Shown here one piece after another: positions 521-10,335 of a stretch of 64,000 nucleotides of DNA. The position numbers were made by a program, and so were the translations under genes. The DNA lies in contig JBCCHT010000001.1 in the NCBI GenBank assembly GCA_039028615.1, positions 448,001 through 512,000 of the forward strand, written 5' to 3'. How positions within the stretch are numbered: the stretch's first letter is position 1; each line of letters opens with the position of its first letter. The DNA is from Myxococcota bacterium. GTDB taxonomy: Bacteria > Myxococcota_A > Polyangia > Nannocystales > Nannocystaceae. The notes beneath the pieces are model-generated. The model was not told where the DNA came from. It worked only from the letters and a program-made list of their open reading frames with translations, and did not search any database.

Positions 521-1498
521 GTGGTCCGAGCCTGGGGCGCCGAGCGGCGAAGTGCGTCCTCGGTGATCCGCTCGGGCCTGGCCGGGAACGAAACAGAAGA
601 GGGCGGAGTCCGCGTTTCGCCCGATGGTCATGGTCCGAGCGTAGACGGGAGCCAAACAGTGTTCGACGAAGAAGACGAGGACGCGCTGGATATCTGGGAG
701 GAGGAGTCGGAGGACGCCGGCGATCTCATGAGCGTGCCCGTCGAGGACGACGACGACGACGACGACGACGGCGACGACGACGGCGACGACGACGACGACG
801 ACGACGACGACGACGACGACGACGACGACGACGACGCGGCCGAGCCAAGCGCATCGAGCCAGTCGGGGCGGCCGTCCTCAATTACGGTGCGCGAAGGCGA
901 CTGCTTGCTTCGAATCGCGGCTCGCTACGGCCTGTCCGTCGACAAGCTCTGGAACGCTTCGGACAACGCGCACCTCCGCGAGACGCGAACAAAGACCCAG
1001 CTGACGCCGGGCGATACCGTCGCCCTCCCCGCTCCCGAACTCAGGACGCTGCGACTGCAGACGTCTAAACGGCATGAAGTCCGAATCACTCATCGCCCCC
1101 GCTGCCACCTGCGACTCCGACTGCTGACCCGAGGAGAGCCCCGCCGCGGGCTGCCCTTCACCGTCGAGGTGGATGGAGCCCAAATCGACGGAACCACCGA
1201 CGACGATGGGCGCGTGGACGTCGAGGTGCCGGCGTCGGCAACTCGAGCGACGTTGGTCCTGCAGGCAGAGACGGGCGAGGAGCGCTACCCCCTGCGAATC
1301 GGCAGCCTCCGGCCCGTCTCCGACGTGGCGGGCGTGCAAGCCCGCCTCAATCGGCTCGGTTTTCGCTGCGGCGCCAACGATGGCGACGCAGGCGTGCGCA
1401 CGAACGCGGCCGCGCGGGCCTATCGACGGGCCAGTGAGCGCGGCACGGCCTCCGAGCCCATCGCAGACATCGATCGACTGACGGGAGAGACGGCATGA
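521..1498 (+). CDS. Acidic poly-Asp / LysM / transthyretin(TTR)-like / peptidoglycan-binding domain protein
   Basis: LysM 'VREGDCLLRIAARYGLSVDKLWN...LTPGDTVALP'; 'GEPRRGLPFTVEVDG...GTTDDDGRV' TTR-like; PG_binding_1-like 'AGVQARLNRLGFRCGANDGDAG'; start uncertain. Confidence 0.75.
   Translation: MVRAWGAERRSASSVIRSGLAGNETEEGGVRVSPDGHGPSVDGSQTVFDEEDEDALDIWEEESEDAGDLMSVPVEDDDDDDDDGDDDGDDDDDDDDDDDDDDDDDAAEPSASSQSGRPSSITVREGDCLLRIAARYGLSVDKLWNASDNAHLRETRTKTQLTPGDTVALPAPELRTLRLQTSKRHEVRITHRPRCHLRLRLLTRGEPRRGLPFTVEVDGAQIDGTTDDDGRVDVEVPASATRATLVLQAETGEERYPLRIGSLRPVSDVAGVQARLNRLGFRCGANDGDAGVRTNAAARAYRRASERGTASEPIADIDRLTGETA
746..835 (+). repeat. GAC trinucleotide microsatellite (30 codons: D8-G-D3-G-D17)
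   Basis: Direct reading: (GAC)n interrupted by two GGC. Confidence 0.95.
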
Positions 1499-9200: not shown

Positions 9201-10335
9201 TCGCACGCGAGATCTCGAGTCCAGCCTGTGGGGCTTCGCCAATCTTCTCGGGTCCGACGGCGAGTTCCTCGCCCGCGACTTTGCGCTGTTCAACGACACC
9301 GTGGTCCGCCAGCGCGCCATCGCGACCGAGCGCAACGAGACGATCCAGGACTCCCACGGCGACAACCGCGACGTCACCATCGTTCGTACCCGGTCGATCA
9401 GCAACGGGCTGACCGTCACCCGTCACACCTGGCTGCGCGACAAGGTCATCGAGCGCATCAACGGGTCCGACAACACGATCTACTTCGAGAACTACCACTT
9501 CAGCGATCCCGACGTGGTGCGGGCCGTATACGAGCGCCACGAAACCCGCTCGGGCGCAGGGGCAGATCTCAAGCTCGTGGTGCTCATTCCCGGGAACATG
9601 AGCCCGACCTCGAGCTACATGACGCGCCGCGCCTGGCTGCAGTGCGCCCTGCGCTTCGAGGACGGCACCACCAACACCCCGTATACGCGCAGCGTCGTCT
9701 ATGACGACGGAGGCGTGGTCCGCGAGATCCAGCGCAACGACTGCATCCAGTGGGACGTGCACGACTGCTACGACCCCGACGAGCCGCTCGCGACCAAGTG
9801 GCTCGAGAACGACTCGCTGACCTTCCGTACCAACGTCGCCGGCCCCACGGAGATCCGGTTCTCGGACATCCTGGCCGTGGACACCGACCTGCACTTTTAC
9901 GCGCCCTACTACATCACCGCGGGGATGGGCCTGAACATGGTCTACACCCACTCCAAGATCGCGTCGTTCGACGACACCTGGCTGGTGGTGGGCTCGGCCA
10001 ACTGGTCGTTCCGCAGCATGCAGTACGACGGGGAAATCTCGGCATTCATCAACGACGCGGGCATCGCCGCGGCCTCCGTCCAGCAGCTGCTACGCCACTT
10101 CAATACCCACGTGGTCGCGCCGATCCCGTTGGCGACCGTGGAGACGCTGGCGATGAACAACGCGGGCGCCCTGGTCGGCGATCGCTTCATGATGCTGCCC
10201 GCCGACATCTACAACCCCGGCGACCTGGGCAACCCCTACCTGAAGTTCTCGCGCGCCGTGCCGCGGGCCCTCGAGGTCCGCAACGTGGTCGACTTTTTCT
10301 CGGCCCCGAGCGAGCCCAACTACACCTGGCTGTGA
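6232..10335 (+). CDS. IPT/TIG repeat (9x) - phospholipase D family protein
   Basis: Nine '(V/I)TxxxPxxGxxxGGxxVTIxGxxF...F(T/E)Y' units; PLD motifs 'NHQKMAIFS...IGGINL', 'PWHDAAV', 'HSKIASFDD...VGSANW'. Confidence 0.88.
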   Translation: MALTVTDVNPTYSKVAGGGAVTITGTDFTQKVRVKFGDTTAKKIVRVSATQITAEIPKAAVGGEVQVTVTNDAGTLWDGGPTVAWGTNFTYYPTVTSIEPPAGRITGDTNLTITGEGFPVGAEVHIDGFPALNTVRVSDTQITCTTRQHAEGRVRLFVFNPGDNQGFYANFHFRKPMISGASPVKATVGGGTDVTIDGDYFPDGATVRFDGAVSPNVDYTSEQRIVARTPNHVAGSVRIQVVTPVRAPVPPAPPVPQVPGVAAATSALDRAFEYSAAEITSIEPAQGPATGGTDVTIKGRGFLVLIDDSAQVGGVPLTGVNVVDANTITGTTDAANAPGASDVSVRNNNGEAAVTLAGAFTYVAQATVTKANPASGPAGTAITIEGTAFVEGATVSVGGVAATNVEVASETAIKCVVGAHDAGQVNVEVTNPDGPTGRLDNGFTYTALAIEPARGLPAGGEQVTIKIPGPVGEDVVVQLGDNQADRVQGNEFRVTTPQHDAGAVDVSVGEATLDDGFTYSSVTRIEPNAGPATTTVTIHGAGFDETTTVSIGGNDAAPVTVVSANEINVAAPVHDAGAVDVVVGGAGAGTFAGGYTYQAAATVTGIEPDTATYLGGTEITITGTGFIEGAAVSIDGNDVTDIEVVSPTTIKGKVPVIPEGAPYAAVDVEVTNPGAAQVTGDDLFTYRSAPVVTAAANPAQGNKGGGRSITITGTGFVDGAKVLLDGEQLPGVIFDNATTLRVRVPAHDRGQVPIAVHNPRDPNPGAARDDTFEFVDELHTPTGDNEADFLMDGEEYFTMLQALFEEVREAPVDPKGLTYVRLAFWMICDDVTLGDQTDFGKAEHTLLKYIEKVVHKGHHVEIIMWRPKIHEQQFGEGQGVFEANDKFAKEVYKIDVAMADVEGSGRARVYFESYEGEVGASNHQKMAIFSIGGQRQVMIGGINLSQGYFASDDHRFPDPTAGGTPWHDAAVYLRGPITDDIEREWMRRWDRTRDLESSLWGFANLLGSDGEFLARDFALFNDTVVRQRAIATERNETIQDSHGDNRDVTIVRTRSISNGLTVTRHTWLRDKVIERINGSDNTIYFENYHFSDPDVVRAVYERHETRSGAGADLKLVVLIPGNMSPTSSYMTRRAWLQCALRFEDGTTNTPYTRSVVYDDGGVVREIQRNDCIQWDVHDCYDPDEPLATKWLENDSLTFRTNVAGPTEIRFSDILAVDTDLHFYAPYYITAGMGLNMVYTHSKIASFDDTWLVVGSANWSFRSMQYDGEISAFINDAGIAAASVQQLLRHFNTHVVAPIPLATVETLAMNNAGALVGDRFMMLPADIYNPGDLGNPYLKFSRAVPRALEVRNVVDFFSAPSEPNYTWL

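Follow-up and report, generated by a model that had tools for sequence, protein, structure and literature searches.

The current study examines a cluster of six co-oriented genes, here termed g1 to g6, that occupies positions 521–10335 on the plus strand of a 64,000-nucleotide stretch of DNA from a member of the Myxococcota (family Nannocystaceae, GenBank assembly GCA_039028615.1). This stretch, hereafter the window, comprises positions 448001–512000 of contig JBCCHT010000001.1 (C1 in our labels) and has a G+C content of ~67%. The source genome, labelled G000 in locus names, is a 12.3 Mb metagenome assembly of a marine myxobacterium in 94 contigs; L-, G-, and C-numbers are our analysis labels for loci, genomes, and contigs of the window's genome, respectively. 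The window stretch is contained in a public marine-metagenome run, and the same lookup of public runs listed no RNA datasets that hold it. The six genes form two modules, A (g1 and g2) and B (g3, g4, g5, and g6). In both, a protein with LysM and PG_binding_1 domains (LysM/PGB) is encoded directly upstream of a large candidate toxin. Based upon these proteins and the gene neighborhoods of their relatives, we consider it rather probable that the six genes are two cargo modules fired by the single type VI secretion system (T6SS) of this genome, which is encoded on other contigs.

Organization and products of the cluster

Third-position GC tracks all six called frames, which were assigned from it together with the translations. 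In module A, g1 (521–1498) encodes a protein with an acidic tail, a LysM domain, a transthyretin (TTR)-like beta-sandwich, and PG_binding_1. Its start codon is uncertain, and its stop codon overlaps the start of g2 (1495–3867; 790 aa, of an uncharacterized family) in an ATGA at 1495–1498. Module B begins 20 nt further on with g3 (3888–4475), a 195-aa protein composed of a variable N-terminal part and a TTR-like C-terminal module of ~65 aa, and continues with the small helical protein g4 (4552–4959). After a gap of 14 nt, g5 starts at ATG 4974 (4974–6215; 413 aa) and combines an N-terminal TTR-like segment, LysM, a beta-sandwich, and PG_binding_1. It is followed 16 nt later by g6 (6232–10335; 1367 aa), which has at least eight IPT/TIG repeats and a C-terminal domain of the phospholipase D (PLD) superfamily. 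The overlap and the three short gaps are as described in an earlier reading made from the letters of this stretch (the sequence-only reading), which had called the cluster an injection-system-like toxin cassette. Its gene count, spacing, LysM/PGB proteins, PLD domain, and missing spike genes all hold, whereas its NlpC/P60 and DUF4123 labels are not supported. The one larger gap, between g3 and g4, measures 76 nt if g4 starts at ATG 4552 (135 aa) and 109 nt if it starts at TTG 4585 (124 aa), which an alignment of seven paralogues favors as the probable start. A 566-aa open reading frame at 4515–6215 is a gene-caller trap, since third-position GC puts g4 in another frame; the first 450 nt of this reading frame are g4 read out of frame. 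No signal peptide, as the sequence-only reading had likewise claimed, and no lipobox was found in any of the six proteins, their highest 19-residue Kyte-Doolittle mean being 1.25, short of the level of a membrane helix or signal peptide.

Both LysM/PGB proteins of the cluster contain LysM above the curated Pfam cut-off (E values of 2.6e-5 for g1 and 3.7e-6 for g5), the domain that marks the LysM-type loaders of T6SS (PMC10673891). The PG_binding_1 match is weak in g1 (E 0.024) and reaches 2.3e-6 in g5, in agreement with the earlier assignment of two proteins of this composition. In each, a beta-sandwich lies between the two domains, and g5 has an extra sandwich-like segment near its N-terminus as well as a match to CarboxypepD_reg (E 0.031), a family of the transthyretin clan. 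TTR-like segments had been claimed for three genes, an assignment that is secure for g3 and less direct for g1 and g5, whose own Pfam matches are weak (E 0.024–0.05); support for the latter two comes from their paralogues, which match Pfam at ~2e-5 and a profile of the g3 module at 3e-7 to 1e-17. The g1 protein can be aligned with 20 family members (21 sequences) over a core of ~210 aa that opens at LysM without a leader. A word-indexed search with g5 returned only 9 proteins, a number too small to be of use. The acidic N-terminal tail of g1 includes a run of ~40 Asp/Glu residues with poly-Asp, encoded by a GAC/GAT-rich tract at window positions 660–840. A similar tail with a shared D-[IL]-W-x-E-E-S-E motif occurs in the closest g1 homologue, from a distant metagenome-assembled genome (MAG; L007:566–800), and the tail therefore seems to be conserved in the g1 subgroup.

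The proposed toxin of module A, g2, matched no Pfam or NCBIfam family at E values up to 0.1, which leaves its former designation as an NlpC/P60 enzyme without support from sequence. A word-indexed search returned 29 homologues, none of them named and none with a Pfam domain. A profile built from 20 homologues and run against 1.84 billion proteins recovered 103 representatives, of which 74 had E values up to 1e-30, and nothing outside the g2 family itself. Among 28 family members chosen for their odd lengths, there was neither a fused LysM nor an informative Pfam domain, nor any NlpC/P60 match at E up to 0.001. The family alignment has the invariant residues R93, W95, K96, D147, E150, H202, D203, N204, C304, H574, and E575. 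In the AlphaFold model of g2 (predicted local distance difference test score, pLDDT, 83; predicted template modelling score, pTM, 0.80), C304 is found where a helix begins and H574 lies within a strand; between them is a helical bundle (residues ~358–547). At E up to 0.001, Foldseek matched this model to nothing in the PDB. Among the 48,161 chains compared by VIA-align, only generic helical bundles came up (residues 358–547, Z up to 8.7). No papain-like chain was returned by these fold searches, and the ESM Atlas gave no usable match for either g2 or g4. Folded alone, residues 1–350 gave a poor model (pLDDT 60, best Z 3.9). The N-terminal part of g2 seems to need the C-terminal part for folding, because residues 198–350 score below 50 by themselves. 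Our guess is that g2 is a Cys/His hydrolase, perhaps acting via the invariant Cys304 and His574.

Like g2, neither g3 nor g4 has a Pfam or NCBIfam match at a meaningful level. The g3-module profile recovers g3 at an E value of 1.4e-24, and g3-type relatives match Pfam CarboxypepD_reg at 8.8e-8 and 8.4e-11. More telling is where else this module occurs. It aligns with the C-termini of VgrG spike proteins at two loci in other genomes (L025 and L021), with invariant residues D137, G155, G160, G166, and G176, and tblastn likewise matched g3 residues 128–191 to both VgrG ends. In the window's genome, the profile detects small open reading frames beside many LysM/PGB copies (on C8, C14 twice, C38, C15, C11, and C73) and also the N-terminal parts of g5-like proteins (C11, C12, and C17). 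Several LysM/PGB copies also match it, more weakly, in their middle domain. All four VgrGs of this genome lack a g3-type module at E up to 1e-3, which is consistent with a supply of g3 in trans. We assign g3 to module B because a g3-like gene precedes the LysM/PGB gene and its cargo at other loci (L058, L008, L013, L015, and L023), and we propose that it may be a free-standing piece of spike extension. The family of g4 is lineage-restricted; g4 has six paralogues in the genome, which mostly neighbor LysM/PGB copies of differing cargo type. Its previous description as a DUF4123-C-like protein finds no support, as none of the seven paralogues had a Pfam match of any kind, DUF4123 (PF13503) included, at E up to 1 and hhalign gave a probability of 0.15% against the DUF4123 protein of the same genome. 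Two paralogues that resemble fusions of g4 to a TTR domain proved on a frame check to be adjacent genes in different frames. Since g4-like genes accompany LysM/PGB copies whatever the cargo, g4 is unlikely to be a toxin-specific immunity protein, and we propose that it is an accessory protein or chaperone.

The proposed toxin of module B, g6, would attack membranes. Its TIG match is strong (Pfam E 2.4e-107) and extends over eight stretches from residue 1 to ~770. The PLD assignment, which the sequence-only reading had invoked as a known effector class, is borne out by PLDc_2 (E 6.6e-15) and by the two HKD-type motifs that are expected of the PLD superfamily and of Tle5 effectors: a deviating one at residue 923 (HxKxxxxS, with Ser replacing Asp) and a canonical one at residue 1240 (HxKxxxxD). 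By sequence, its nearest solved relatives are the eukaryote-type PLD1 and PLD2 (E 8e-7), a similarity that covers the second motif only. The triad of g4, g5, and g6 is found three times in the genome, in the window and on C11 and C12.

The HKD region of g6 also has weak matches (E 1e-2 to 2.5e-4) to DrmC of the DISARM system and to the nuclease NucT, and Ser/Thr kinases with tetratricopeptide (TPR) repeats adjoin many of the modules (window positions 1–405, L045, L047, L050, L020, L019, and L058). Both observations could be accommodated by an intracellular role, for example in an anti-phage or stress system, with the PLD-family protein serving as a nuclease and the others as sensors. We consider this very unlikely. 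The DrmC and NucT matches span the generic HKD motif only, the other five proteins match no PADLOC model, and the cytoplasm is an implausible place for wall-binding domains and TIG repeats. The kinase linkage itself was rejected as a signal, as 4 of the 13 LysM/PGB copies have a kinase within 5 kb compared with 29% of random sites, which is the chance level for a genome with 352 kinase loci.

The cluster is a discrete six-gene island, since its flanks are unrelated to it. Upstream lies one of the above kinases (C1:444818–448405, ending at window position 405), while downstream a set of minus-strand genes converges on g6 and encodes a TPR protein, an anti-sigma-like membrane protein, a pseudouridine synthase, and an S9 peptidase. 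Of the first two (10786–11969, minus strand), the TPR protein measures 183 aa and has a signal-like N-terminus, and the anti-sigma-like protein measures 211 aa and has one membrane helix. A periplasmic TPR protein adjoining a PLD gene is reminiscent of the Sel1-type immunity proteins, although the two paralogous TIG-PLD modules on C11 and C12 have no such TPR neighbor. No cognate periplasmic immunity gene adjoins g6, as the genes after it are convergent and resemble an anti-sigma/TPR operon.

Distribution of the modules and their linkage to spike genes

A scan of one genome per species for relatives of g2 yielded 19 loci from other genomes, and at every one of them tblastn located a g1-like gene immediately upstream of the g2 homologue. 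These loci represent at least four phyla and include Myxococcota, Acidobacteriota, Thermodesulfobacteriota (Desulfobacterales), Phycisphaerae, and MAGs labelled Pseudomonadales or proteobacterium. Within the window's order, coordinates place g2 immediately beside a LysM/PGB match in all eight other genomes that have it. The LysM/PGB family itself is more widespread there than g2 (46 vs. 9 of 73 genomes) and is mostly multicopy, yet full-length copies were found in only 2 of the 121 genomes in a sample of the phylum. At one locus, the protein upstream of the g2 homologue (L024:8121–9983; 620 aa) ends in a sandwich and PG_binding_1 and contains no LysM, so that LysM is not obligatory in the g2 partner; it also has a sub-threshold match to OmpA (E 5e-5, 24 bits vs. 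a cut-off of 27.2 bits).

An analysis of gene neighborhoods, which the sequence-only reading had suggested, places relatives of g1/g5, g2, and g3 beside T6SS-type VgrG or PAAR genes in several lineages. The clearest case comes from the Phycisphaerae (L025), in which an 872-aa VgrG (Phage_GPD, Phage_base_V, and Gp5_trimer_C) with a C-terminal g3-type module precedes three LysM/PGB genes whose large partners all differ (one is a g2 homologue), and a PAAR protein comes after them. Similarly, at L021 a VgrG end with a g3-type module is followed by LysM/PGB and a g2 homologue, and at L014 a PAAR gene lies 7 kb downstream. The L014 locus also has a radical SAM gene (L014:7477–8883) two genes upstream of the pair. 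At L058, a single operon encodes a VgrG with DUF2345, a g3-like protein, LysM/PGB, an FGE-sulfatase-domain protein, and an M23 peptidase with PG_binding_1, while at L059 a VgrG and a LysM/PGB gene are divergent, the latter with a lipase-like alpha/beta hydrolase next in line. The linked VgrGs are of T6SS type and ~740–870 aa in length, one of them with DUF2345. In five near-complete genomes of the window's family, 5 of the 23 full-length copies lie 1–2 kb from a VgrG, whereas by our arithmetic ~0.2 would be expected by chance. These five copies may, however, represent perhaps two independent loci, as four of them resemble one orthologous, divergently arranged locus. In G033, which belongs to another family and has three copies, one is ~2.8 kb downstream of the sole VgrG on the same strand, and in the same-genus genome G166 one copy is ~4.3 kb downstream of a VgrG.

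The window's genome encodes 13 full-length LysM/PGB copies and two partial ones. Around eleven copies, neighboring genes were called with a GC3-based script, with strands set from tblastn coordinates, and then scanned with Pfam. Where examined, the copies are mostly upstream of a large and variable protein: TIG-PLD in three cases, a 726-aa PLD (C49), and uncharacterized proteins of 895 aa (C14), 726 aa (C8), and 608 aa (C17). On C11, a 935-aa protein consists of LysM and PG_binding_1 fused to a C-terminal part of cargo size. Given this varied cargo and the one fusion, the arrangement of loader and cargo matches the pattern described for T6SS LysM domains, which stand alone or are fused to the toxin at its N-terminal end (PMC10673891). 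The window shows the separate form twice, with g1 before g2 and g5 before g6. By analogy with the loaders demonstrated experimentally in that study, g1 and g5 are better read as effector loaders or co-effectors than as wall-targeting toxins.

The genome is also not devoid of an injection system, an outcome that had been named in advance as fatal to the cassette. One T6SS is present on contigs other than that of the window, represented by TssC (split across the ends of C34 and C19), Hcp, and TssF, and there are four VgrGs (on C14, C32, C38, and C1) as well as a PAAR-like gene, even though no Pfam PAAR_motif was found in this genome. The VgrG of C1 belongs to a classical island (C1:230000–237000, L057) with a Tle1-like protein, DUF6484, a PAAR-like toxin domain, and Imm11. 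The minus strand of C14:19000–42000 (L048 and L049) encodes a VgrG, a 471-aa protein, a DUF6531/Rhs protein of ~1400 aa, a g3-like protein, several unknowns, and a LysM/PGB copy with its 895-aa partner; this region may be one extended cargo island. An oddity is that the LysM/PGB family has expanded well past the number of spikes in this genome.

Besides the T6SS, the genome has three phage-sheath-like genes (C9:205313, C15:145308, and C19:147915), which point to contractile tail-like loci or to extracellular contractile injection systems (eCIS); the C19 gene has a DUF4123 gene 11 kb away. LysM proteins are, moreover, core parts of eCIS baseplates according to PMC10673891. The modules could consequently be imagined as cargo of an eCIS or a phage-tail-like particle instead of a T6SS, but this is highly improbable. 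No sheath, tube, or baseplate Pfam family was found among the neighbors at the 19 foreign loci, the 13 loci of the window's genome, and 2 further loci, and by the same scans no family member resides in an eCIS operon. The VgrGs to which the family is linked are of T6SS type, and the closest LysM/PGB copy of the genome is ~31 kb from a sheath gene. Of the two machines that the sequence-only reading had offered for delivery in trans, the T6SS is thus favored by the neighborhoods and by the T6SS genes of the genome itself, whereas the eCIS is not.

Proposed delivery of the modules

In the model that we favor, both modules would be loaded onto the T6SS from a distance. A LysM protein with a bridging function has been described in Ketobacter alkanivorans GI5, in which the toxin Kalk_10455 was bound to VgrG in co-immunoprecipitations only with the stand-alone LysM protein Kalk_10460, as reported in PMC10673891. 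By analogy, g1 and g5 would bridge their downstream cargo (g2 and g6, respectively) to one of the four VgrGs, while g3 would provide in trans the kind of TTR-like extension found at VgrG ends in other species and g4 would serve as an accessory protein or chaperone. Once fired, g6 would use its PLD to degrade phospholipid of the target membrane, and g2 would work as a hydrolase. The two wall-binding domains, LysM and PG_binding_1, might also tether the cargo to the target cell wall. Two general observations are in keeping with this model. Firstly, PLDs, lipase-like enzymes, and M23 peptidases are typical T6SS effector classes, and the presence of all three among the neighbors of relatives supports a delivery by T6SS. 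Secondly, a route other than Sec is favored, because signal peptides are absent although LysM and PG_binding_1 act outside the cytoplasm.

Several points weigh against this model. As had been recognized previously, no vgrG, PAAR, or hcp gene is present in or near the cluster, and no immunity gene was identified for either of the proposed toxins. A position within a vgrG locus, which is seen for family members in L021, L025, L058, L059, G033, and G166, does not apply to the window, as the closest VgrG on contig C1 is ~216 kb away, upstream of the window. The only LysM/PGB copy near a VgrG in the window's genome is one on C14, ~15 kb from the VgrG-Rhs island there, a distance that is compatible with chance. 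Of the 23 copies in the five near-complete genomes, 18 are far from VgrG, and among the 19 g2 loci, VgrG and PAAR each occur in two within the DNA that was fetched, with many of the contigs being short. Some linkage may be hidden by contig breaks, as expected of metagenome assemblies. Two copies of the window's genome have radical SAM enzymes downstream (C17:65950–68200, L055; C38:33869–36500, L053), which would be odd cargo. In the data of PMC10673891, PG_binding_1 in vgrG loci is confined to gamma-proteobacteria, and the likeness of the cassettes to Kalk_10460 and to BRPE67_05220 (see below) is one of domain and gene order rather than of sequence comparison. Lastly, the secretion, binding, and toxicity of the modules are all predictions from sequence.

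The scarcity of spike genes beside most LysM/PGB copies, together with the fact that LysM and PG_binding_1 are ordinary wall-binding domains, could suggest export by an entirely different route, such as outer-membrane vesicles, lysis, or another contact-dependent killing machine, with the LysM/PGB proteins serving as wall-anchoring subunits of two-part lytic enzymes. Such a route is unlikely in our estimation. It would leave unexplained both the repeated adjacency to VgrG and PAAR across lineages and the module that is shared by g3 and the VgrG C-termini, and the proteins have neither a signal peptide nor a lipobox. A further scenario retains the link to the T6SS and reassigns the roles, so that the LysM/PGB proteins would not be loaders but either co-effectors, injected to direct cargo to the prey wall, or immunity-like partners. 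Two wall-binding domains would indeed be useless in the cytoplasm of the producer, and PMC10673891 allows that such LysM proteins may be multifunctional and in some cases toxins. Nonetheless, we find this decidedly unlikely as a replacement for loading. The LysM/PGB genes are upstream of the cargo instead of in the usual downstream position of immunity genes, and their products have no signal peptide, without which an immunity protein would not reach the periplasm. In addition, the one experimental case in that article demonstrates bridging to VgrG, and injection and loading are compatible, so that this scenario overlaps with the T6SS loading model.

An extended form of the T6SS loading model can also be envisioned, which we regard as possible but doubtful. 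The modules would then constitute a detachable loading kit, in which a free TTR plug, a small helical partner, and a bridge of LysM, TTR, and PG_binding_1 domains would let one T6SS with a few plain VgrGs fire at least a dozen scattered orphan toxins, including the new enzyme family of g2 and the TIG-decorated phospholipases. The bridge would be co-injected and pin the toxin to the prey wall, and the missing immunity genes would indicate that these weapons are aimed at prey and not at kin.

If the T6SS loading model is correct, the LysM/TTR/PG_binding_1 gene would mark orphan T6SS toxins both in myxobacteria and in further environmental phyla; most such toxins would lie far from spike genes and be overlooked by vgrG-centered searches. 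LysM-mediated bridging between VgrG and toxin would likewise be extended to a new phylum, to a three-domain form, and to extra partners. The family points to at least one unexplored toxin family (g2) as well as to an unusual TIG-repeat phospholipase D, and the missing immunity genes bear on the question of whether predatory bacteria keep prey-only weapons.

Comparison with known systems

The closest parallels are found among LysM proteins of T6SS loci. In a screen of 130,825 vgrG loci (Wang et al. 2023, PMC10673891), LysM and PG_binding_1 are among six domain families that are either encoded by genes of their own or fused, C-terminally to VgrG or N-terminally to toxins; TTR beside DUF2345 is mentioned as well. 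In addition to the Ketobacter pair, the same study describes the LysM-NlpC/P60 effector BRPE67_05220 of Burkholderia sp. RPE67, for which LysM is required for VgrG binding. LysM-bearing effectors are also common in the vgrG neighborhoods of Acinetobacter, according to PMC6838775. The cassettes resemble the Kalk_10460/BRPE67_05220 type in having a small non-enzymatic LysM protein upstream of, or fused N-terminally to, a large polymorphic toxin and in having relatives directly downstream of VgrG. In contrast to the Kalk_10460 type, the window's proteins have three domains (LysM, a TTR-like sandwich, and PG_binding_1), exist in 13 copies that are mostly far from vgrG, and are accompanied by the extra small partners g3 and g4, with no immunity gene following the toxin. 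Among the literature retrieved, no title or opening of an abstract describes the LysM/TTR/PG_binding_1 family, the g2 family, or the g4 family.

A myxobacterial precedent is TsxE of Myxococcus xanthus, a LysM-amidohydrolase encoded directly downstream of vgrG2 and, according to PMC5801462, a putative T6SS effector of an effector-immunity pair. The window shares with TsxE/TsxI a myxobacterial LysM protein, which in the case of TsxE is encoded beside an orphan vgrG. The two differ in that TsxE fuses LysM with its amidohydrolase and has an immunity gene downstream, whereas the LysM proteins and candidate toxins of the window are encoded by separate genes, with neither vgrG nor an immunity gene. 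The g3 module has its own counterpart, as the VgrGs of L025 and L021 end in this ~65-aa module as a C-terminal extension, although in the window it resides on a free-standing 195-aa protein and the four VgrGs of the genome are without it. C-terminal TTR extensions of VgrG are known to recruit cargo effectors. The PLD effectors of T6SS form the Tle5 class, exemplified by PldA and PldB of Pseudomonas aeruginosa. With these, g6 has in common a PLD domain with two HKD-type motifs and nearest solved relatives among eukaryote-type PLDs, a likeness drawn by class and not by direct comparison with PldA or PldB. It departs from them in its N-terminal series of at least eight IPT/TIG repeats, the Ser in place of Asp in its first motif, its LysM/PGB partner, and the absence of a paired Sel1-type immunity gene. 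Despite these distinct qualities, the cassettes are a variant of the known LysM-loader arrangement rather than a new kind of system.

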